From positions 81,988-145,987 of the forward strand of contig JASMMA010000003.1 in NCBI GenBank assembly GCA_030748415.1: a stretch of 64,000 nucleotides of DNA. The letters are read 5' to 3'. Shown piece by piece: positions 8,847 through 54,763 of the stretch (its first letter is position 1; each line of letters starts with the position of its first letter). The notes beneath the pieces are model-generated. The model ran no database searches. It saw only the letters and a program-made list of their open reading frames with translations, and was not told the DNA's origin. Both the position numbers and the translations under genes were made by a program. The DNA is from Planctomycetota bacterium. Its GTDB lineage: Bacteria; Planctomycetota; UBA1135.

Positions 8847-9080
8847 CTAACCGCCCTTTCCGCCTTTTATCAGAGAAAGAACTTCTCCAGGATTAGGAAA
8901 ACGACCGGTTTGAGCTTTGTCGAAGACAAGCTCGCCATCCACGCGCACCTCGAATATGCCCCCGCCGCCTGGAATGAGTTCGGCATCAACATCCAATCCT
9001 TCCTTCAGCTCAGCAGCCAGACCGGCCGCACGAGGCTCAAAGTTTCAGACCAAACAAAATTCAATGCTGATTTTTTTCAT
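8847..9080 (-). CDS. SelW/Rdx-family selenoprotein (CxxU) with in-frame UGA at 9047..9045
   Basis: The frame from ATG 9080 to TAG 8847 is open apart from one TGA. It translates to MKKISIEFCLV-U-NFEPRAAGLAAELKEGLDVDAELIPGGGGIFEVRVDGELVFDKAQTGRFPNPGEVLSLIKGGKGG. This shows the CxxU and IPG..G.FEV.VDG....GRFP hallmarks. An AGGTGA Shine-Dalgarno sits 5 nt upstream. Confidence 0.8.
9009..9034 (-). promoter_or_regulatory. Putative bacterial SECIS hairpin for the SelW-like gene
   Basis: The mRNA can fold GCGGCC-GGUCU-GGCUGC (9029..9013), starting 15 nt after the UGA. The stem extends by 4 bp past a bulged U. The GGUC apical loop plus bulged U resembles the E. coli fdhF SECIS. Confidence 0.5.
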
Positions 9081-9101: not shown

Positions 9102-9178
9102 TGGTGGGCCGACCAGGACTTGAACCTGGAACCTACGAATTATGAGTTCGCAGCTCTAACCAATTGAGCTATCGGCCC
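9102..9178 (-). tRNA. tRNA with CAU anticodon (elongator Met, or lysidine-type Ile2)
   Basis: A 77-nt cloverleaf folds by hand: GGGCCGA/TCGGCCC acceptor, GCTC/GAGC D stem, GCGAA-CTCATAA-TTCGT anticodon arm, CCAGG-TTCAAGT-CCTGG T arm, and an encoded CCA. It is not initiator-like. The C4/C5 acceptor pairs are Ile2-like. Confidence 0.9.
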
Positions 9179-32869: not shown

Positions 32870-34438
32870 CTAAAACTGCTCCGAAACCAAATTACTGAGC
32901 TTGCAGCTCGTTGTATCAACAAGCTGGATGTGGAAGGTTTTCCCTGCCGCTCCACTTGGGACCGATTTGGAAAAACTTCCTGTGCCAGCGGAATCAAAGG
33001 AAATCGTTCCCGCCACCTTTGGATTCCTTAGGCCTAGGAAAACCGAAGAGCAGGATGTGCTGGAGAAGCCTGTGCTGCCACTGTAGTAAAGGGTTCCTGA
33101 ACCATTAGCAGTGCCACCAGTCACCGTTAGGGTGTTCAGGGTACCCGCCGTTCCGGGGCTTGGATTGGTGATGGTCAAAGGACCTCCGCCGCCGCCTCCG
33201 CTGCAACCGGCATCCAGACAACTGCGAGAGTTTTTGTGGTTGTTGATGCTGTTGATGCTAGAACTTCCAAACTTGGAAACATTTCCAGAACAACCTCCAT
33301 TACAAGGGCACATGATGTGGCAAGAACCACAACCTGAACAACTGCTACAACAGTGGCCAGCGTTCCAGTTATGTCCAAGCTCATGCGCGGAAAGGCTCAC
33401 GCGGCGAGACATGTTGCTTGTGTAGCGAGACTGAACCATGGAGTAGCCGTAGTTGCTATTGCAAACAACACCAAGCCAAGCAATTCCGATTACAGAACCT
33501 GAAACGGACCTTCCCGTGAATAGCTGGGCAAAGTCGCGCTGGACGCTTCCCTGGTTGGAACGCCACTCTGCGCGGAACTGGTCCAGAAGAGTTCCCGGGT
33601 CATTGCTGGTATAGGGGTTGGAGCCGCTTGAGGTGCGAACAATGATCGTGGTGATGTCGTAACAAATGCCAACATCATTTTGGTAAATCACCTCAACATC
33701 ATTCATGACATCTTCAATATCCGCGATAGTGTTGTTGGAGTTGTTCCCATTCTTTTGGAAGAATTGGTAATCCGCATCAGCAGCAAACTCTACGGTCTTA
33801 TCGGCGCGTTGGTTTCCACTAAGGGAACCAGCACCCGTGTGTTGGTTATTGCCAGGGCCGGGAGCGTGTGCGCCACTATTGTTTCCACCACTAAATGGGG
33901 ACACAGGATCCGATTGATAGTTAGGTGGGAGCAAAGATTCTGCCATGACCCAATTGTCATCGGGAACCATGTCGGCAGTGTTGTAAATAACATGTACATC
34001 GGAAATGGCTGAGTTGTCAAAGTCGCTCAAGGGCTGAACCATCCGAACAGGAGAGCCGTCGCCCAAATCAATTCGGGCATGGAGACCATTCTTCCTTAAA
34101 GAGGCCGAAACGATGGAACCCGGGATGCCGGCGATCGCGCCGCGGTAAGTCCGGATTTCTGGAGTTTCGATTGCATAAAGCTTGCCATCTTCGCGTTGTT
34201 CATAAGCAACAAAGTTCTGGCTGCGAACGGAATACTTGTCTAGCAAGAGTTCGGTATCAAAGACCTCGTCGAGAACCAGGCGAACCTGAAAGTTCTCAAC
34301 GGGAGTTGCTGGGAGTTCCAGCGACTGAAGTGACCAAGCAAAGAAGCTCTCTTCAAGAGTTGTTGCAGAGTCGTTATTTGTGAGAGAAGCGGAAGAAAAG
34401 GCCAAAGGAATGGCCGCAATGAGGGAGAGAATGTTCAT
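32870..34438 (-). CDS. Secreted metzincin (reprolysin/M12B-like) zinc metalloprotease with a Cys-rich segment and the shared C-terminal domain
   Basis: It has a signal peptide, the zinc motif HELGHNWNAGH (HExxHxxGxxH) and a CHIM Met-turn-like motif within CCSSCSGCGSCHIMCPCNGGCSG. The C-terminal 105 aa or so carry VPSGAAGKTFHIQLV. Confidence 0.75.
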   Translation of the reverse strand: MNILSLIAAIPLAFSSASLTNNDSATTLEESFFAWSLQSLELPATPVENFQVRLVLDEVFDTELLLDKYSVRSQNFVAYEQREDGKLYAIETPEIRTYRGAIAGIPGSIVSASLRKNGLHARIDLGDGSPVRMVQPLSDFDNSAISDVHVIYNTADMVPDDNWVMAESLLPPNYQSDPVSPFSGGNNSGAHAPGPGNNQHTGAGSLSGNQRADKTVEFAADADYQFFQKNGNNSNNTIADIEDVMNDVEVIYQNDVGICYDITTIIVRTSSGSNPYTSNDPGTLLDQFRAEWRSNQGSVQRDFAQLFTGRSVSGSVIGIAWLGVVCNSNYGYSMVQSRYTSNMSRRVSLSAHELGHNWNAGHCCSSCSGCGSCHIMCPCNGGCSGNVSKFGSSSINSINNHKNSRSCLDAGCSGGGGGGPLTITNPSPGTAGTLNTLTVTGGTANGSGTLYYSGSTGFSSTSCSSVFLGLRNPKVAGTISFDSAGTGSFSKSVPSGAAGKTFHIQLVDTTSCKLSNLVSEQF

Positions 34439-34655
34439 GAGGGAGTTGTGTGGGAATGCAAAGGGGCACCCCCTATGTTACAGGTTTGACCAAATGGGAC
34501 CTTTTTTGGTTCCGCATTCCTTGACGATGCATGAACGCAAACACCTAAACTGTTACTATATATATGTTTACGATATCAAAAACGGGCGTTAGGGTCTTGG
34601 CAGTTTGCCGTCCGTGAGTTATTTAGCGGTGGGCCTGATTCTTGGAGGGATCAAA

Positions 34656-36755
34656 ATGTTTGTTTCACAAAAATCAATTTTCGCGGGCTTGCGGGTTGCG
34701 CTCTTCGGCGCTCTCCTCGCCTTCACCCCTGGCTGTCTAGGGGGTAGTAGTTCTACTCAACTAGAGGCATCTTTCGATCACGACGCAGTCGTTTTGAAGG
34801 ACTACCTCGGGAATGAACTATTGCTCGGAACGACTGAGCCTTACAGTCCTCGTAAAACTTGTGGGGATTGCCACGATTTCGAGCATGCAGAGCTCGGATA
34901 TCACTTTCAGCAAGGTCGAGCTGATGAAACCGGCGATGTGGTCGCAATAGATGATTTCTTTGGCGATGGCAGAGACTACATCGTTTCCTCAGGAATGTAT
35001 GGGAAGTGGTGACCTCCTTCCTCCGACGCCAGCCAGTTGGCCGGCAAAGACAACGCAAGCGCTTCTGAGATTGACAAGACTTCTTACTTTTGGGCCGGAA
35101 AATGCGGCGCGTGTCACCCTGGCGGTGGCCCGGGCGAATTCGACCGAGATGGACAGAAGTATTACGACCTGGAAACAGGCCTTTATGGCTACGAAAACTT
35201 AGGACTGACCGCTGGTGATGTTGAGTTTGATGGTGATTACAGTTTTGTAAGCCCATCTACCGGCTCACACATGGCAGCCAAGTGGGCGACAACCGGTGTT
35301 TCCGAGCCGGATTGCCTTTCTTGCCACAAAACTACCTGGACGGTCACTGATGGGAAAATCATGAACGGGGTTTGGCGTCAGGCCACCCTTCGCTCCATGC
35401 ACACCCTAGTTAATGACCTCGGGGAAACTGTTCCCGCCTACTACTCTGCGCCTACTGCAGGAATGGGATGGTTCTCCACCCTAGACTTCAAGAGCCTGCC
35501 GGCCGGCAAGCCCACTGAGGCAGAGGTTCTTCAAATTGACTACCAAGCTGGCATTGATGCTGGGCACTTGGAAGTGAATGCTGATGGATACCTTTCCTTA
35601 TTTGGGGATGTCATTTCCGACTCGCCTAATGATTTCGCTTGCTGGCAATGTCACACTTTTGCAGATAGTAAAAAACGGGGACGCTCTTGGTTTAATGCAG
35701 ATCAAGATGTGCACTTCGCTGCATTTACTCACCGCGACGATGATGACCCCAGCAACGATTTGGAAGATGGCGATAGCCAAGGCTGCATTGAATGCCACCC
35801 AAACAATGGCGAGCATGATTTCGCCAAGGGTAACGCGAACTTGCAGTCGGTTCGAAACCACACGGACTACAACAACTTCAGGTCATGTCGTGAATGCCAC
35901 ATGGAAGGCGGTAACAAGCACCCCGATGCAACCGTTCCTACCTCACCCATTCACACCGACGACGGACACCTTGATGTAATGTCCTGTGAGTTCTGCCACA
36001 TTCCTTACAAAGAAACGAAGAGCATGTTGGTTGTTGACAATGCCTCTACTGGTTCAACAAAATCATTCTGGACCAATGACGCGGCGCATGGATTTTCTTC
36101 TGGAAACCCAATGAATCCTGCTGACCCTATCAAGGACAAGTGGTATCCATCCGTTAAGTGGAAAACAGACTACGACGGTGTTGACCGCATTTTCCCAATG
36201 AAGGCGCTTTCTGTCATGTATTGGGGAGATTGGGACCAAAATGGAACTCCATCGGACTACACAGATGATGTCATCACACCTCTTATCTTGTGGCGTGTCC
36301 GACAAATAACAGGTGGGGCTGTTCTCCCAGGAACCTTGGACGATTCTGGCGATGGTGTTGCCGAAGTAAACACTGCTTCTGAAATTGCGGCTTACCTCGC
36401 TGCACTCAAGGGCAATGACAACTTTGGAAATCCTGTTGCTGTGACTCCTGTCCTTGTGAAGGGTGGCAACATTTGGTACGAAGACCTCGCAGAACCTGAA
36501 GGCGTGAATCATTTTGAGTATCATGGAACAGGGATTGCGATTGAATCTCTTATCCCATTCTCACTGGACCACAATGTGCTTCCTGCTTCCCGCGCCTTGG
36601 GCGCAAACGGCTCTTGCGGCACCTGCCACAGGGGCTTGAATGGTGGCCTCATGGCACCTGGTTTTGATCGGCTGATTTTGGAAGATCCCTACAACGAGCT
36701 GGGTTCGCCGGTATTTACAACACCGCGCGATTTGCTCGGAATCAATCCTTTCTAA
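34656..36755 (+). CDS. Octahaem c-type cytochrome lipoprotein; single reading frame interrupted by one TGA (35010..35012)
   Basis: ATG 34656, preceded by GGAGGG, opens MFVSQKSIFAGLRVALFGALLAFTPGC (lipobox). There are eight CxxCH motifs: CGDCH, CGACH, CLSCH, CWQCH, CIECH, CRECH, CEFCH and CGTCH. Track ORFs 34605..35012 and 35037..36755 share a frame and are separated only by the TGA. Confidence 0.55.
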
Positions 36756-36773: not shown

Positions 36774-36812
36774 GCGCCATCCGTCCCTCAGGGCGGGTGG
36801 CGCAATTTTTTT
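36774..36812 (+). terminator. Rho-independent terminator after the cytochrome gene
   Basis: GCGCCATCCGTCCC-TCA-GGGCGGGTGGCGC forms a 13-bp stem including G-U pairs. AATTTTTTT follows and overlaps the glgP stop codon. Confidence 0.65.
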
Positions 36813-38895
36813 ACTTGTTCAAATGAGCGGGCAAGTAGTATCTGTGCAGGTAATCGGACAGCATGCGGTCCGCGCGGAATTGACTGGGCACTGTTTGAAT
36901 TGAGTTGCGCATCCGGCGAACCCATCCATGGGGTATTCCATCTCGACCAGTTTTATGAAAAAGAGGAATCACCTCATTCTCAAGTAGTTCGTAAAGCGAT
37001 TCGGCATCCGAAGTGTCTTGTCGAGCTCTTGATTTAAATTCAATTCCATTCCCAATTGCCCACCCATTCTTTTTGTTCCAGGCTTCCGGCCACCAGCCGT
37101 CCAATATTGACAGATTGAGGCCGCCGTGGAGCGTGGGTTTCATTCCCGAAGTGCCGCTAGCCTCATGGGGGCGAAGGGGAGTGTTCAGCCACACATCACA
37201 ACCGCTCGTTAACATCCGACCAATTCGCATGTCGTAGTCCTCCAGAAGAACGACGCGACCGCGGAGGGCCATTCGTTGAGTCATTTTAAATATTTTCTGG
37301 GCATAGGCTTGACCATCTTTGTCATCCGGGTGTGCCTTCCCAGCGAAAACGAATTGAACGGGGCAATTAACATCAGACATCATTCTTTCCAGACGTTTAA
37401 TGTCCTTAAAAAGAAGAGGGGCCCTTTTGTAGGTCGCAAAGCGGCGGGCAAACCCAATGGTGAGGGCATCCTCCTCTAAGACTTGTTGAGCTTTGGAGAT
37501 TTCCGATGCAGTTGCGCCTCGGCGAATCGCTTGGTCCGCGTTCATTTTCCGCACAAAATGGACAAGCTCCGAACGCAACGTTGTGCGAAGGTCCCAAAGG
37601 TCGCCATCGCTTAACTTGTCTGTTCGTTTCCACAAGTTTTCATCTGGGGAATCTTTGGACCAATCCACACGGAGCTTCTTCCGATAGAATTCTTCCGTTG
37701 TGGATGAGAGCCAGGTTCGCATATGGACGCCGTTTGTCACATGACCAATGGGGACCTCTTCCGGTGATGGTGCGTCGTACACCTTTTGCCACATCTCACG
37801 AGACACTACACCGTGGAGAGCAGAAACTCCATTGACTTGGTTGGCTGTATTTAGCGCCAATACAGTCATGCACAAAACAGGCTCCTTTTTCGTGGGCTCC
37901 TGCGGGTTTTCATCTCCAAGAGCTGCCAGCCTTTTCGCGTTCAATTCCGCTCCACGCAAAACAGGGCGCAACCATTTGCTTGCAAGCTTAACGGGATAGC
38001 GGTCGTGGCCCGCAGGAACAGGGGTGTGGGTTGTAAACACCGTGCTCTTTTTGATTTTTGAAAGACATTCGTTCCGTCGCATGCGCTCAAGCTGAACGAA
38101 GGCCGCGTGCCCTTCGTTTAAGTGAAAAACTGTTGGTTTTTCACCGAGAGCATCCAGTGCCATCAAACCGCCTACACCTAAAAGGATTTGTTGTCGAAGA
38201 CGGTCCTCGGGAGAACCGCGATACAAACCAGCAGTTAGCGCACGATCCTCAGGGCGGTTCTTTTCGAGGTCGGCATCGAGTAAATAAAGAGGGACACGGC
38301 CAACCTGAAGCTGCCAAACTTTTGCCCAAACCGTGCGGGTTCCCATTGGACAAGCAATCTCCTTGCCTGTGTCTTGAAGTGGCCAAACATTCCAACAAAA
38401 CTCCGGGTAAAGAGCGCGAGTGGCGCCATCGGACTGAAACTCTTGTCGGTAGTATCCGTGCCGATAAAGAAGGCCAACGCCGAGTAATGGGATGCCGAGG
38501 TCGCTTGCAGTTTTTAGATGGTCGCCGGCCAAAACGCCGAGGCCACCCGCGTATTGAGGCATGCTTTCGTGAAGTGCGAACTCCGAGCAAAAATATGCCA
38601 CACGCAAACGCCGCTCTTTAGCTGTAGATGATTTTGAAAACCATGTTTTTGCTTTGGCGTACTCGCGAAGATTTTTTTCAACATTAGAAAGCCGAGACAG
38701 GAAGCTCTTGTCTGTTGAAAGGGCTTCCATTCGAGCTGGCGAGCCAACTTCCAGAACAATGGCCGGGTTGTGATTGCTGGCCTCCCAAAGCACCGGGTCA
38801 ATCTCGGCATACAGGGCTTGAGCGGAGTGGTTCCATGTCCACCAAAGATTTTGATGGATGGATTTGAGGCGTTCCTTCAGTTTTTCTGGGTTCAT
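36811..38895 (-). CDS. glgP: Alpha-glucan (glycogen/maltodextrin) phosphorylase, GT35
   Basis: Typical alpha-glucan phosphorylase signatures are AYFCSEFALHESMPQYAGGLGVLAGDH and the PLP-lysine region EASGTSGMKPTLHGGLNLSILDGWW. Confidence 0.9.
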   Translation of the reverse strand: MNPEKLKERLKSIHQNLWWTWNHSAQALYAEIDPVLWEASNHNPAIVLEVGSPARMEALSTDKSFLSRLSNVEKNLREYAKAKTWFSKSSTAKERRLRVAYFCSEFALHESMPQYAGGLGVLAGDHLKTASDLGIPLLGVGLLYRHGYYRQEFQSDGATRALYPEFCWNVWPLQDTGKEIACPMGTRTVWAKVWQLQVGRVPLYLLDADLEKNRPEDRALTAGLYRGSPEDRLRQQILLGVGGLMALDALGEKPTVFHLNEGHAAFVQLERMRRNECLSKIKKSTVFTTHTPVPAGHDRYPVKLASKWLRPVLRGAELNAKRLAALGDENPQEPTKKEPVLCMTVLALNTANQVNGVSALHGVVSREMWQKVYDAPSPEEVPIGHVTNGVHMRTWLSSTTEEFYRKKLRVDWSKDSPDENLWKRTDKLSDGDLWDLRTTLRSELVHFVRKMNADQAIRRGATASEISKAQQVLEEDALTIGFARRFATYKRAPLLFKDIKRLERMMSDVNCPVQFVFAGKAHPDDKDGQAYAQKIFKMTQRMALRGRVVLLEDYDMRIGRMLTSGCDVWLNTPLRPHEASGTSGMKPTLHGGLNLSILDGWWPEAWNKKNGWAIGNGIEFKSRARQDTSDAESLYELLENEVIPLFHKTGRDGIPHGWVRRMRNSIQTVPSQFRADRMLSDYLHRYYLPAHLNK

Positions 38896-51252: not shown

Positions 51253-52116
51253 ATGCCTGAGACTCGACTCCTTTCTGACAACCTTTGGGCTGTCTGCTTC
51301 AAATTGCTGCCAAACCAACTAGAGGGCGCTCCTGCGCCCCAGAGGGTCCATCTTTCTGGCACCTTCAACCAATGGGACGAGACCTCCCTCCTTATGGAAA
51401 GGGGAGCCGATGGCTCCTGGGGGGCCCGGTTAGAGCTTCCGGAGGGGGAGCACCTTTACAAGTTCATTCTGGATGGAGAGTCTTGGTTTCCGGATCCCGA
51501 GAACCCACTTTCTGTTGATGACCCCCACCATGGAAAAAACTCGGTGCTTGAGCTGGGCAGGCTCTCGGGTCGAGAGCAGTCCTTTTTAGTTCGAGACGAT
51601 CTCCATTGGCGGGCAGTCAGTTCTCCTCGCCGATTGGAGATTCTAGAGTTCCTCCTCTCGGCCGCCCCTTGCTCTACGGCCGAGCTTGCCGAAGCAATGG
51701 ATGTTGCAGCCGATGGCCTCTACCACCACATCCGGATTCTTCTCAAGGCTGGTCTTGTCCGTGAAGTTGGCGAAGTTTGTCGGGCAAATCGCACTGTTCC
51801 TGTTTTTGACGTGGCCGCGAGGGAGCTCCGCTTTCAGCCAGACGATGACGATCGGCTCCCCTCACTCTGGCGAAGCCTGGCCCGTCGAGCCGAGCGGGCG
51901 ATTGAACATTCAGGTGACACCCCTCACCTAGATCCACTCTTTTCCCTGGGTGGTGAAATTACATGGCTAAATGAAGAGAGAATCGAAAAGGTCCGCACGC
52001 ACTTGGCACACATCAAGCGCCTCTTTGCGGAAGGCCGCCAAGACCGGCATGGCCAACTTGTTCTGCTCGCCCATCTGATGACTCCAGTTGAGCGAACCCG
52101 AACAAATAGCTCTTAG
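51253..52116 (+). CDS. Fusion of a CBM48/AMPK-beta-type glycogen-binding module with an ArsR-type winged-helix regulator
   Basis: The N-terminus is VHLSGTFNQWDETSLLMERGADGSWGARLELPEGEHLYKFILDGESWFPDPENP, a CBM48 signature. The middle is RRLEILEFLLSAAPCSTAELAEAMDVAADGLYHHIRILLKAGLV, an ArsR HTH. Confidence 0.75.
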   Translation: MPETRLLSDNLWAVCFKLLPNQLEGAPAPQRVHLSGTFNQWDETSLLMERGADGSWGARLELPEGEHLYKFILDGESWFPDPENPLSVDDPHHGKNSVLELGRLSGREQSFLVRDDLHWRAVSSPRRLEILEFLLSAAPCSTAELAEAMDVAADGLYHHIRILLKAGLVREVGEVCRANRTVPVFDVAARELRFQPDDDDRLPSLWRSLARRAERAIEHSGDTPHLDPLFSLGGEITWLNEERIEKVRTHLAHIKRLFAEGRQDRHGQLVLLAHLMTPVERTRTNSS

Positions 52117-53567
52117 TCCCGAGACGCCGCACGATCCACGCCAATAGCGTTGAGGTGTTCTGCAGCGTCTGCTGTTGGATAAGAACCCGTAAAGCAACCA
52201 GTGCAGAACCCTTCAATAGCGGGGTTCCCCGTTTGTGCGGCTTCCACCATTCGATTCAACTCAAGGTACATCAAATAGTCCACGCCTATTTCGGCTGCAA
52301 TTTCACTGTTATCTCGATCGCGCGCAATAAACTCTTTCTTTGTCGCCATATCAATCCCATAAGGGCATGGGGCAACAAGAGGGGGGGATGTTGACGCAAA
52401 ATAAACATTCTTTGCACCGGCGCGGCGTGCGATTTCCACAATCTTGCGCGAGGTGTTGCCGCGCACAATGGAGTCGTCCACTAACAAAACATTTTTATCT
52501 TTAAATTCCAGCGGAATCGGGTTCAGTTTTCTCCGAATTGCAGACCGGCGCTCCTTCTGGTTGGGCATGATGAAGGTTCGCCCAACATATCTGTTTTTAA
52601 TAAAGCCCTCTCGGTAGGAAATTCTCAAGTAGTGCGCCATGGAAAGAGCAGCATCGCGTGAAGAATCGGGAATAGGAATTACAACATCTGGGCTTGGAGC
52701 TCCTGCTTCTTCCCATTGCTTAGCCAATGCCTTTCCAAAACGGCGGCGAGTTTTATACACAGAAATTTCATCCAGAAACGAATCCGGCCTAGAAAAATAC
52801 ACCAACTCGAAAATGCATGGTCTGTGGGCTTGTTCCGTAACCTGAATGAACTCCGGCTCTTGGCCCGGGCGAACAACAAACGCTTCTCCAGCGCGCAAAT
52901 CCCGAACGCGCTCAAAACCAATAACATCAAAGGCAACGGATTCGGATGCAGCTGCCCACTCAACCCCTTCCGGGCTTTCGCGCCTTCCAATCACACACGG
53001 CTTGATGCCTGTTGGATCTCGAAAAGCAAACATGGCACCCTCGCTTAAAATCCCACAAACGGAATAGGCGCCTTTTGTGCGGTCAAATACACCTTTTACG
53101 GCAACCCCGATTCGGTCAATCAGCGCGGCTGTTGGGTCGGTGCGGTGAAGAGCTTGAGCAAATGCATAAAGAATGGCCTCCACATCGCAGGAGGAAGTCA
53201 GGCAAATGTTTTCTTGTGGAAACAAACGGCCCTTGAGGTCCAAAAAGTTTGTGAGGTTTCCATTGTGAGCCATGCCCACACCAAATGGGTAGTTGATATA
53301 GAAAGGTTGGGCATCTTCGTCTGAACCCATGCCAACGGTGGGATAGCGAACATGGGAAACGCCCAGGTTTCCTTTCAGCCGCTGCATGTCACTAAAGCGG
53401 AAAATATCCCGCACCATTCCGTTTTGCTTGCGTAAATGAAAACGACCATCGTAGGACAAAATGCCAGCGGCGTCCTGGCCGCGGTGCTGTAGAGCAATGA
53501 GGCCTTCGTAAAGCTCGGGAGCCGTATCCGTTCCGGGCAAGCCGGCGATGCCGATGAATCCGCACAT
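52113..53567 (-). CDS. purF: Amidophosphoribosyltransferase
   Basis: MCGFIGI provides the N-terminal nucleophile Cys. The PRPP loop is VLLVDDSIVRGNTS, and C-terminal Cys residues are present. The track start (TTG 53588) would add a 7-aa propeptide. Confidence 0.9.
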   Translation of the reverse strand: MCGFIGIAGLPGTDTAPELYEGLIALQHRGQDAAGILSYDGRFHLRKQNGMVRDIFRFSDMQRLKGNLGVSHVRYPTVGMGSDEDAQPFYINYPFGVGMAHNGNLTNFLDLKGRLFPQENICLTSSCDVEAILYAFAQALHRTDPTAALIDRIGVAVKGVFDRTKGAYSVCGILSEGAMFAFRDPTGIKPCVIGRRESPEGVEWAAASESVAFDVIGFERVRDLRAGEAFVVRPGQEPEFIQVTEQAHRPCIFELVYFSRPDSFLDEISVYKTRRRFGKALAKQWEEAGAPSPDVVIPIPDSSRDAALSMAHYLRISYREGFIKNRYVGRTFIMPNQKERRSAIRRKLNPIPLEFKDKNVLLVDDSIVRGNTSRKIVEIARRAGAKNVYFASTSPPLVAPCPYGIDMATKKEFIARDRDNSEIAAEIGVDYLMYLELNRMVEAAQTGNPAIEGFCTGCFTGSYPTADAAEHLNAIGVDRAASRD

Positions 53568-53623
53568 GGGATGATTTTGGGGTGGCAAGCGGGTGGGTGC
53601 TGACCCGCATGGAGGTGAACATT

Positions 53624-54763
53624 CTACCGAAAACTGGCCAAAGTTCCCCCTCGGATTGCCTCAAGCTCATCCAAAACACCTTCCGACTCTGCATTCACAC
53701 AAGCCAACCACTCGCGCTGTCCATCCGAACGGCGATAAAGCGGGTCGTAGTAGTGCTCCAGGAGAGCGTGGGCAACTTTGGGCCACTCACCCTGGTCCAA
53801 CCAGAGCTGAAGTTTTCCGGTCCACTTTGCTTCAAGCCGTTCCTTAAAAAATGGGAGCCGATCTCGCACTCGCTTCAAGTGCTCCCGCGTGCTTGCATAG
53901 TCTTCTCCCAATACATTTACGCGAAAAGAATCACTCGCTTCGATACGAACGGAAGAGCCCGCTTCCATAGCTTGGAAGATTGTTCTAGGAATAATTGAGT
54001 CCCCAACCTTTCGGCTCTCCCCTTCCACAAACCATGGAGGCGGGCCCATCTCCAAAAGGCGGTGCGCGAGGGAAGAATCAAAAGATTTTTGACTCTTCGG
54101 GTTGAGACCAATTGCGCCAAGAACCGATGAACGGTGACCTGCGCAATCTTCCAAATCAAGCGTGGAGCCTGGGTTTTTCTTTTCAAGGCCACGAAGCAAT
54201 CGTGTTTTCCCAACACCCGTTGGACCTCGAAGAACAACAAGGGGTGTGGCCGGGTCAAATCTATGAAGTACTCTGCGAACCCAGGAACGGTATCCCCGAT
54301 AACCGTCTTGGAGGTGGAACACATGAGAGTGACCCAGCTCCCTCAATAAAGCAATAACCGCGCAGGAACGCATTCCTCCGCGCCAACAGTGAATCAAAAT
54401 GGGGTTCTTTGAAACAAAAGAAAACTCCGCCCTTTCGGCCACGATGGATTGCACCAATGGAGTTAATTTTTGAAACTTGGGCAGCCACTCCTTGCGCGGA
54501 ACGGGTGCGCCCAATATTTCTTCCAACATGCCTCCTATTCGTTCCTTCGCAAGAGCCAATCCTTCCCGGTAAGCTGCTTCTGGTGATTCTTGTTTGTAAA
54601 GCGTTCCAACAATGGTGCGCTGGTCATTTTCAAAAAGGGGGAAATTTATCGCCCCGGGAATGTGGTCGTCTTCGAACTCAGCAGGGCTTCGAACATCCAC
54701 CACGCGCAGGCCCGAAAGGGTGCGAGCATCCTCAAAAGAAAGGCTGGGAATGTTCATGGGCAC
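53624..54763 (-). CDS. selU: tRNA 2-selenouridine synthase
   Basis: A rhodanese domain carries the active-site motif CWRGGMRS, followed by the P-loop GPTGVGKT and LLEHYYDPLYRRS. It is collinear with E. coli YbbB/MnmH as I recall it. Confidence 0.85.
   Translation of the reverse strand: MPMNIPSLSFEDARTLSGLRVVDVRSPAEFEDDHIPGAINFPLFENDQRTIVGTLYKQESPEAAYREGLALAKERIGGMLEEILGAPVPRKEWLPKFQKLTPLVQSIVAERAEFSFVSKNPILIHCWRGGMRSCAVIALLRELGHSHVFHLQDGYRGYRSWVRRVLHRFDPATPLVVLRGPTGVGKTRLLRGLEKKNPGSTLDLEDCAGHRSSVLGAIGLNPKSQKSFDSSLAHRLLEMGPPPWFVEGESRKVGDSIIPRTIFQAMEAGSSVRIEASDSFRVNVLGEDYASTREHLKRVRDRLPFFKERLEAKWTGKLQLWLDQGEWPKVAHALLEHYYDPLYRRSDGQREWLACVNAESEGVLDELEAIRGGTLASFR

Follow-up and report, generated by a model that had tools for sequence, protein, structure and literature searches.

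The cytochrome locus

The stretch of DNA analysed here, which we call the window, comprises 64,000 nucleotides (nt) of contig JASMMA010000003.1 from a Planctomycetota bacterium (lineage UBA1135; assembly GCA_030748415.1, positions 81,988 to 145,987 of the forward strand). Near its middle lie two open reading frames (ORFs; 34605 or 34656..35012 and 35037..36755) that together encode a protein with the eight haem-attachment motifs of an octahaem c-type cytochrome. An earlier interpretation made without database searches, hereafter the sequence-only reading, took them for a single gene joined by a UGA codon that might specify selenocysteine (Sec). The two ORFs do share a frame, with TGA 35010-35012 as the sole stop between them, and the frame that opens at ATG 34656 runs on to TAA 36753-36755, so that the in-frame UGA described in that reading is confirmed. 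The joined product of 699 amino acids (aa) begins with a signal-peptide-like and lipobox-like N-terminus, MFVSQKSIFAGLRVALFGALLAFTPGC, whose putative lipidation site (...LLAFTPGC) recurs in orthologs as LPAC, LPGC or LTGC, as judged by reading the sequences only. Motif positions likewise bear out the earlier count of one CxxCH 5' of the UGA and seven 3' of it.

Several features of the junction point to one polypeptide. The TTG at 35037, which gene callers take as the start of the downstream ORF, sits inside the loop of a hairpin; it lacks a Shine-Dalgarno sequence, as had been remarked, and the piece that it opens has no signal peptide and reaches its first in-frame Met only 3' of the CGACH motif, again as the sequence-only reading had it. 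A plus-strand scan found no terminator-like site at the UGA junction; apart from the intrinsic terminator 3' of the cytochrome gene, it returned one site nested in the 36774 stem and a weak 5-bp stem at 35293-35310 within the downstream piece. Together with the comparative evidence below, we take it as almost certain that 34656-36755 is a single gene with a conserved, functional UGA. The sequence predicts an exported lipoprotein of ~76 kDa, a cytochrome c that binds eight haems covalently.

Conservation of the UGA among homologs

The joined product was used as the query in a protein search against 5.8 billion proteins, one genome per GTDB species was scanned (223 relatives, of which 79 loci were read), and the junction peptide was aligned to the loci by tblastn. 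The database proteins fall into short and long forms. About 40 short ones (560-587 aa) cover the last 82% of the query, and all begin with 'MAGK' or 'MAAK' at the loop TTG, while the long homologs (730-780 aa) span both halves in one frame. In two relatives (L001 and L003, 59% and 73% identical) the upstream ORF ends in TGA 24 nt before the called start, precisely as in the window, and P0001, a database protein of 99% identity, is cut short there as well. Orthologous loci split at the identical codon, and full-length homologs with a sense codon there, thus support the single-gene reading; orthologs that encode two separate proteins, an outcome that the sequence-only reading had named as contrary to it, were not seen, the same codon splitting them each time.

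At the column of residue 119, which the UGA occupies, we found an in-frame stop in 34 homologous loci (31 unique), and it is TGA in every one, with no TAA and no TAG. These loci come from Planctomycetota, Candidatus Wallbacteria, Chloroflexota, Deferribacteres, Candidatus Delongbacteria and several Desulfobacterota, and reach down to 27-30% identity to the window protein, with the surrounding loop conserved as G-M-(Y/F/M)-G-K-(W/F)-U-P-P-S. Where the codon is a sense codon, the column holds Cys (TGT/TGC) in seven loci (NW-C-SP in L063, L071 and L076-78; RY-C-TV in L069/L070), Tyr in ten (local motif RW-Y-PY), Gly in 24, Ser in 14 and Trp in a single one (TGG, the third copy in L025). The alignment that the sequence-only reading had asked for therefore gives TGA across at least six phyla, Cys in seven loci and Trp just once. 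A pattern scan of metagenomes added 71 contigs with the signature (56 unique contexts), and CxxCHxGGG follows downstream in 64 of the 67 contigs long enough to show it. It is the conservation of TGA in 34 of 34 stop-bearing loci, and hence comparison rather than the window alone, that shows the feature to be more than chance.

A conserved hairpin after the UGA

The hairpin proposed earlier is present as described: it begins 15 nt after the UGA, has one A.C mismatch (Table 1), and is the minimum-free-energy fold of the 48 nt that follow the UGA (-10.3 kcal/mol). Its 10-mer apex, GCCAGTTGGC, has no second copy in the 64 kb window. An alignment of the 31 unique TGA genes over 48 nt from the UGA onwards shows the apex GCC-AGUU-GGC to be invariant in 31/31 and the next three pairs down the stem to covary: pair 20-35 has CG in 11, GC in 11, UA in 8 and UG in 1 and is never unpaired; pair 21-34 is CG in 20, UA in 9, GC in 1 and an unpaired CA in 1; and pair 22-33 is AU in 20, CG in 10 and an unpaired AC in 1. 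Taken together, 92.6% of the cells form pairs (74% in shuffles), and the covariation score of 0.484 compares with 0.144 in shuffles (0/500 reach it) and with less than 0.14 in slid controls. RNAalifold independently gives the same stem of 6-7 bp as the pair count. Some of the compensations accompany amino-acid changes (Ser TCC/Gly GGC to Ser AGC/Ala GCG; Phe UUU/Lys AAA to Gly GGG/Pro CCG), so that protein conservation would not yield the covariation of the stem.

The hairpin is also specific to the TGA-bearing genes. The Gln-Leu codons of its loop are CAG TTG in 34/34 TGA genes, against 5 of the ~20 sense-codon homologs that have Gln-Leu, in which the Leu codon is mostly CTN; and GCCAGTTGGC is found in 31/31 unique TGA contexts, against 2/58 sense contexts (Fisher p 6e-22, uncorrected for phylogeny). 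Thus the hairpin conservation, which the sequence-only reading had proposed to check, shows both compensatory change and restriction to TGA genes. In L069/L070 (TGT) and in L154 450-2597 (P0053; GGA) an intact hairpin still follows the codon at the Sec column, which suggests very recent loss of Sec, and around 6530 in L025, where the codon is TGG, the hairpin has partly decayed. A near-identical sister of L154, L053, keeps TGA at this position, and the GGA of L154 could be an assembly variant.

In a distant group of homologs the hairpin starts 9 nt after the UGA, versus 15 nt in the window; with two codons fewer, the loop lies at 16 nt rather than 22 nt, and both UGA-to-loop spacings fall within the known range of bacterial selenocysteine insertion sequences (SECIS). 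The A.C mismatch of the window recurs in 32/56 unique metagenomic contexts and so is no defect. The most abundant metagenomic Sec-type subgroup (within L083-L153) has the peptide ...KWUPPSSDSSQLARKVNMR. A longer lower stem, CCUUC/GAAGG, occurs in some sequences and was rejected because it is not conserved. Judged by these sequence comparisons, the hairpin presumably acts as a SECIS-like element.

Selenium use and genetic code in the window

Two further genes of the window tie it to selenium, and both had been noted by the sequence-only reading. The SelW-like (Rdx) gene is real by its match to PF10262; it encodes 77 aa and has a classical SECIS (-20.7 kcal/mol, z = -2.9), whose hairpin GCGGCC-GGUCU-GGCUGC (9029-9013, loop GGUCU) lies 15 nt after its UGA. 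This is the same UGA-to-hairpin spacing as in the cytochrome gene, and the apical stem GCGGCC/GGCUGC almost matches that of one subgroup of the cytochrome family. The gene stands directly downstream of tRNA-Met (9102-9178, minus strand). The second, selU/mnmH, is present with a score above the cutoff of its model; it adjoins purF (52113-53588) and has no selD next to it, a gene that often neighbours selU.

TGA is an ordinary stop in 9/28 long ORFs of the window, which indicates the standard genetic code. Genetic code 25 (UGA = Gly), which the Gly-bearing relative had brought to mind, was rejected since TGA ends these 9/28 ORFs and the codon of the relative is truly GGA. The SelW-like gene, selU and the TGA stops together indicate that the organism uses selenium and the standard code.

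Weighing the explanations

A number of observations count against a selenocysteine-containing enzyme encoded by one gene. The hairpin is short, and the folding energy in the window is no better than that of shuffles (z = -0.37), so that the fold alone proves nothing; the covariation statistics given above carry no phylogeny correction. Mismatches at pairs 21-34 and 22-33 (A.C + C.A) interrupt the stem in the QLARKVNMR subgroup, the largest from metagenomes, which keeps a 3-bp G-C apex and, beyond a 2x2 internal loop, two or three more pairs; the weakened lower stem suggests that the GCC-AGUU-GGC apex is the essential part. The scoring with SECIS models that had been suggested did not favour the element: an Rfam E-value scan around the UGA gave chance-level matches and no SECIS family, no curated Rfam SECIS model matches the hairpin, and at the gathering threshold the whole window yields two tRNAs only. 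Neither selA, selB and selD, sought among 20 long ORFs of the window, nor tRNA-Sec (selC) was found within the 64 kb. Gly, Ser or Tyr, in place of Cys, occupies the site in many homologs, an uncommon pattern for a catalytic Sec, and the gene neighbourhoods give no hint of a substrate.

The residue pattern at column 119 speaks strongly against nonsense mutation, against sequencing error and against a pair of independent genes. Were the window considered by itself, its lone TGA beside a TGG codon would fit a pseudogene, in which a TGG-to-TGA or similar nonsense mutation had inactivated an octahaem cytochrome gene, and the third copy in L025 indeed has TGG at the site; yet the same TGA recurs in 31 unique loci of several phyla with protein-level conservation of both halves, TAA and TAG are absent from the column, the covarying hairpin is specific to TGA genes and 71 metagenome contigs repeat the signature, all of which makes inactivation extremely improbable. 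An error of sequencing or assembly at the junction is hardly credible at all: single-base differences between assemblies do exist, as between the GGA of P0053/L154 and the TGA of its sister L053, but TGA stands at the same codon in independent assemblies from many studies and technologies, and the 99%-identical P0001 is truncated there too. Nor are we persuaded by the annotation found in every database entry examined, which splits the gene into a fragment and a 'hypothetical protein' and would correspond to a monohaem lipoprotein and a heptahaem protein made by translational coupling or by re-initiation at TTG 35037. A c-type cytochrome needs a signal peptide for export and haem attachment, whereas the downstream piece has neither this nor a Shine-Dalgarno sequence; its supposed start is a conserved internal Leu codon; sense-codon homologs cross the junction as single polypeptides; and AlphaFold2 gives one compact fold for the joined chain, with a predicted local distance difference test score (pLDDT) of 87-90 around the site. 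Two genes are thus very improbable.

A slight chance remains with a conserved programmed stop other than Sec, whether hairpin-stimulated read-through by a near-cognate tRNA (Trp, Cys, Arg or Gly) or mostly termination to give a small monohaem lipoprotein, with read-through to the long form now and then. The shortness of the hairpin and its place outside the curated SECIS models agree with such a stop, as do the varied residues (Gly, Ser, Tyr, Trp) of sense-codon homologs and the lack of visible Sec machinery within the 64 kb window. Against it, the stop is exclusively TGA and Cys homologs occur at the exact column; the spacing, G-U loop and stem sequence of the hairpin resemble the SelW-type SECIS of the same window; and the N-terminal fragment alone would be a mature peptide of 92 residues whose fold is integrated in the full AlphaFold2 model. 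To our knowledge, Sec is the only conserved UGA recoding established in standard-code bacteria. The proposal that UGA 35010-35012 is decoded as Sec, supported by the conservation of TGA, the Cys homologs and the TGA-specific covarying hairpin, is therefore very likely correct, and we hold the explanation as a whole, a single gene for a Sec-containing cytochrome, with good confidence. We infer the insertion of Sec itself from these sequence comparisons.

Table 1. Features of the cytochrome gene and of the selenium-related genes in the window (window coordinates)
Feature	Position	Strand	Basis or remark
Shine-Dalgarno sequence GGAGG	34644..34648	+	7 nt 5' of ATG 34656; sequence reading
Predicted gene for a 699-aa Sec-containing octahaem c-type cytochrome, with UGA read-through	34656..36755	+	shared frame, homologs spanning both halves, AlphaFold2 model
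Predicted signal peptide ending in lipobox-like TPGC (Cys27)	34656..34736	+	sequence reading
Haem motif 1, CGDCH, residues 69-73, 5' of the UGA	34860..34874	+	conserved in the family
UGA, predicted selenocysteine 119, in the loop G-M-Y-G-K-W-U-P-P-S	35010..35012	+	TGA in 34/34 stop-bearing loci, Cys in 7
Putative SECIS-like hairpin GCCAGCC-AGUU-GGCCGGC	35028..35045	+	invariant apex, covariation, specificity to TGA genes
Haem motif 2, CGACH, followed by invariant PGGGPGEFDRDG; proposed catalytic haem	35103..35117	+	catalytic assignment deduced from the NrfA alignment
Haem motif 3, CLSCH	35313..35327	+	motif scan
Haem motif 4, CWQCH, followed by K339/K340, specific to the Sec/Cys/Tyr classes	35640..35654	+	class comparison
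Haem motif 5, CIECH	35784..35798	+	aligned to NrfA haem 4
Haem motif 6, CRECH	35886..35900	+	aligned to NrfA haem 5
Haem motif 7, CEFCH, preceded by class-specific H438	35985..35999	+	class comparison
Haem motif 8, CGTCH	36615..36629	+	motif scan
Strong intrinsic terminator, 13-bp stem and T run, 3' of the cytochrome gene	36774..36813	+	terminator scan
SelW-like (Rdx) selenoprotein gene, CxxU, TGA 9047-9045	8847..9080	-	PF10262, E 7e-19
selU/mnmH, tRNA 2-selenouridine synthase	53624..54763	-	NF008750, 293.5 bits vs cutoff 241

Fold, distant relatives and domain fusions

Pfam and NCBIfam searches with the joined protein returned only generic cytochrome domains or sub-threshold matches. An AlphaFold2 model built with 120 homologs has a pLDDT of 90.8 (~87-90 around residue 119) and a predicted template-modelling score of 0.89, with residues 1-39 disordered. 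Its only significant Foldseek match among PDB entries released up to April 2026 is the octahaem tetrathionate reductase (OTR) of Shewanella oneidensis (1SP3; E 2e-6, probability 1.0, 12% identity), at TM-scores of 0.28 normalised by the query and 0.43 normalised by the target. The eight motifs and the OTR-like fold of the model support a relationship at the superfamily level only. The window protein has no match to TIGR04315, the OTR model, and distant members of the family score 28-57 bits against its cutoff of 375, over the central haems. Searches with NF040886 (MccSep/ExtKL) and NF041027 (the GSU2204 family) gave no match, either in the window protein at E<=1 or in three distant members at E<=0.1.

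A PDB sequence search with the single window protein found no match, and a search with the profile of 120 sequences was overrun by matches to calmodulin and dockerin, because long non-Sec homologs bear an N-terminal extension of EF-hand/dockerin-like type. A profile of distant members without that extension reaches the pentahaem cytochrome c nitrite reductase NrfA (E 9e-6) and not 1SP3. In this alignment haems 5-6 and the KKRG...DVH loop before them fall on NrfA haems 4-5 and the catalytic-His loop, a register that would make haem 2 (CGACH) the equivalent of the catalytic haem 1 of NrfA. CGACH-PGGGPGEFDRDG is the best conserved stretch of the cytochrome family.

The family also shows distinct domain architectures. 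Sec-type members of Chloroflexota, Delongbacteria and Desulfobacterota and Tyr-type members of Acidobacteriota are 840-880 aa long, with a C-terminal dihaem cytochrome b of FdnI type (PF01292, E 5e-18; TIGR01583, 142-155 bits, cutoff 116), a fusion that points to self-contained quinol-linked oxidoreductases. Such homologs, which combine eight c-haems with a membrane quinol site, were seen at L056, L059, L061, L062, L065 (3836-6415), L072, L074 and L082. The planctomycete proteins lack the cytochrome b domain and have a lipoprotein-type N-terminus instead. In the long non-Sec homologs (P0020-P0052 and others) the extension is a pair of dockerin/EF-hand-like D-x-D-x-(D/N)-G-(Y/F)-V repeats in the N-terminal 60-80 residues after the signal peptide; Sec-type proteins have a lipobox in place of the repeat pair, with the exception of L055, whose reconstructed N-terminus shows the repeat. 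Phycisphaerae-type genomes (L017, L025, L028, L038, L041, L044, L045 and L047) encode tandem, head-to-tail fusions of two non-Sec paralogs, Gly-type with Ser-type, of 1400-1650 aa and 14-16 CxxCH motifs, in some of which the first motif is CX3-4CH, and several of these genomes hold three or more paralogs.

Predicted role of residue 119

We compared the Sec, Cys, Tyr, Gly and Ser classes in an alignment of 85 sequences. The Sec, Cys and Tyr classes share five residues (H83, Y169, K339, K340 and H438) that the Gly and Ser classes have lost, and this co-conservation places residue 119 in a set that resembles an active site; two of the five, K339 and K340, belong to the loop aligned to the NrfA active-site loop. 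The alignment has no conserved Cys outside the haem motifs, and without a second conserved Cys the arrangement known from MccSep, in which Sec stands beside a Cys-ligated haem, does not apply. The protein has ~9.5 kDa per haem, within the range associated with catalytic cytochromes (PMC7096707).

Accommodating these observations, we propose the following scheme. SelB with Sec-tRNA would bind the hairpin at 35028-35045, which has a G-U step in its loop, and the ribosome would read the UGA as Sec119. In the folded protein Sec119, part of the loop G-x-G-K-(W/F)-U-P-P-S that lies after haem motif 1 and before haem motif 2, would sit in the pocket of haem 2 (CGACH-PGGGPGEFDRDG), perhaps as a nucleophile on its distal side, and act in catalysis alongside H83, Y169, K339/K340, H353 and H438, on a substrate that might be a small chalcogen or nitrogen oxyanion or of the polysulfide type. 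Electrons would run along the haem chain; in other phyla the fused FdnI-type dihaem cytochrome b would connect the domain to the quinone pool, and the planctomycete version would be a stand-alone lipoprotein. We infer the placement of Sec at the haem-2 pocket, the class of substrate and the role as an enzyme rather than an electron carrier; we lean towards a catalytic role of Sec near haem 2.

A bolder version of this scheme would make residue 119 the sixth (distal) ligand of the catalytic haem, giving a natural His/selenolate-ligated haem c with Cys thiolate or Tyr phenolate in its place in sister clades. Where the rest of the pocket is kept, the replacements of Sec are exactly Cys and Tyr, and both of these are anionic haem ligands. 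The number of conserved non-motif His residues, seven counted for eight haems, also leaves room for this reading, as does the lack of a second conserved Cys of the MccSep type. We consider such ligation unlikely.

Comparison with known multihaem selenoenzymes and related cytochromes

The sequence-only reading knew of no described Sec-containing multihaem cytochrome, a point that needs correction: such proteins are now known and the class has precedents, although the present family is not one of them. MccSep/ExtKL (GSU2937-2936) of Geobacter sulfurreducens is a Sec-containing pentahaem polysulfide reductase, whose C-terminal Ig-like domain holds Sec325 next to a haem with His/Cys ligation (PMC13510729), and the table of a 2026 review lists ExtKL (NF040886), the GSU2204 family (NF041027) and a Sec-containing OTR-family octahaem cytochrome annotated in GenBank (TIGR04315) (PMC13188914). 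MccSep resembles the window protein in being a periplasmic multihaem c-type cytochrome whose gene had been annotated as two ORFs on either side of an in-frame UGA; the two also share a SECIS-like hairpin just 3' of the UGA, Cys-type relatives within Sec-type clades, and Pro directly after Sec (G-U-P in MccSep, W-U-P here). MccSep is thus a working precedent for Sec acting beside a catalytic haem. The differences are nonetheless considerable: the NF040886 searches detected no sequence relationship and PDB searches by sequence gave no match to MccSep, the window protein has eight haems rather than five, with its predicted Sec close to the N-terminus and flanked by haems 1 and 2, not in a C-terminal Ig-like domain, and the His/Cys haem ligation that is essential in MccSep has no counterpart in a family without a conserved extra Cys to provide it.

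OTR shares with the window protein eight CxxCH haems, a catalytic type and a large amount of protein per haem, but the latter is ~260 residues longer, has a large C-terminal beta-rich region and scores far under the TIGR04315 cutoff. In the case of NrfA (e.g., PDB 1FS7), the profile alignment implies a shared core arrangement of haems, whereas all eight motifs of the window protein are CxxCH, with no CxxCK, it has eight haems against five, and the similarity extends over ~95 residues only. Sulfur enzymes such as TsdA and SoxAX have His/Cys-ligated catalytic haems (summarised in PMC13510729) and, like the present family, tie one conserved chalcogen residue (Sec or Cys) to a catalytic haem c; they have no sequence or fold relationship to the window protein, and by analogy with them a haem-ligand role for residue 119 is conceivable.

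The cytochrome family is absent from curated selenoprotein lists and fails the ExtKL/MccSep, GSU2204 and OTR models, and our literature searches found no description of it. We conclude that the family is new among selenoproteins, that it belongs to a kind established only recently, and that its kinship with OTR and NrfA does not go beyond the superfamily level. MccSep, the first multihaem selenoenzyme, was characterised only in 2025-26 and answered a fifty-year-old question of sulfur respiration. The present family would be a second such family, unrelated to MccSep in sequence, with members in no fewer than six phyla and on dozens of metagenome contigs from sediment and groundwater; even if Sec does not ligate a haem, it would form a second and more widespread class of multihaem selenoenzymes, linked to the quinone pool by a fused cytochrome b in several phyla. 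Its recognition would correct hundreds of annotations and add a family to the bacterial selenoproteome. The family may point to a respiratory or detoxifying reaction, as yet unknown, in Planctomycetota, Desulfobacterota, Chloroflexota and others, and the Sec, Cys, Tyr and Gly/Ser versions of one predicted active site would constitute a natural experiment on selenium in haem catalysis.

Gene neighbourhoods

Neighbourhoods of the cytochrome gene are not conserved among the window, L001, L003, L059 and L074, and an operon-based assignment of the substrate was dropped for this reason; the neighbours include a reprolysin protease, glucan phosphorylase, type II secretion genes, GAPDH and an H+-pyrophosphatase. 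In the window the gene is flanked by a reprolysin-like metalloprotease with a Cys/Gly-rich tail (32870-34438, minus strand) and a DUF3417 alpha-glucan phosphorylase (36811-38895, minus strand), which are syntenic in the closest relative (L003/L043, 73% identity) and not beyond it. The window is rich in genes of glycogen metabolism, with malQ, a glgB-like gene and the phosphorylase.

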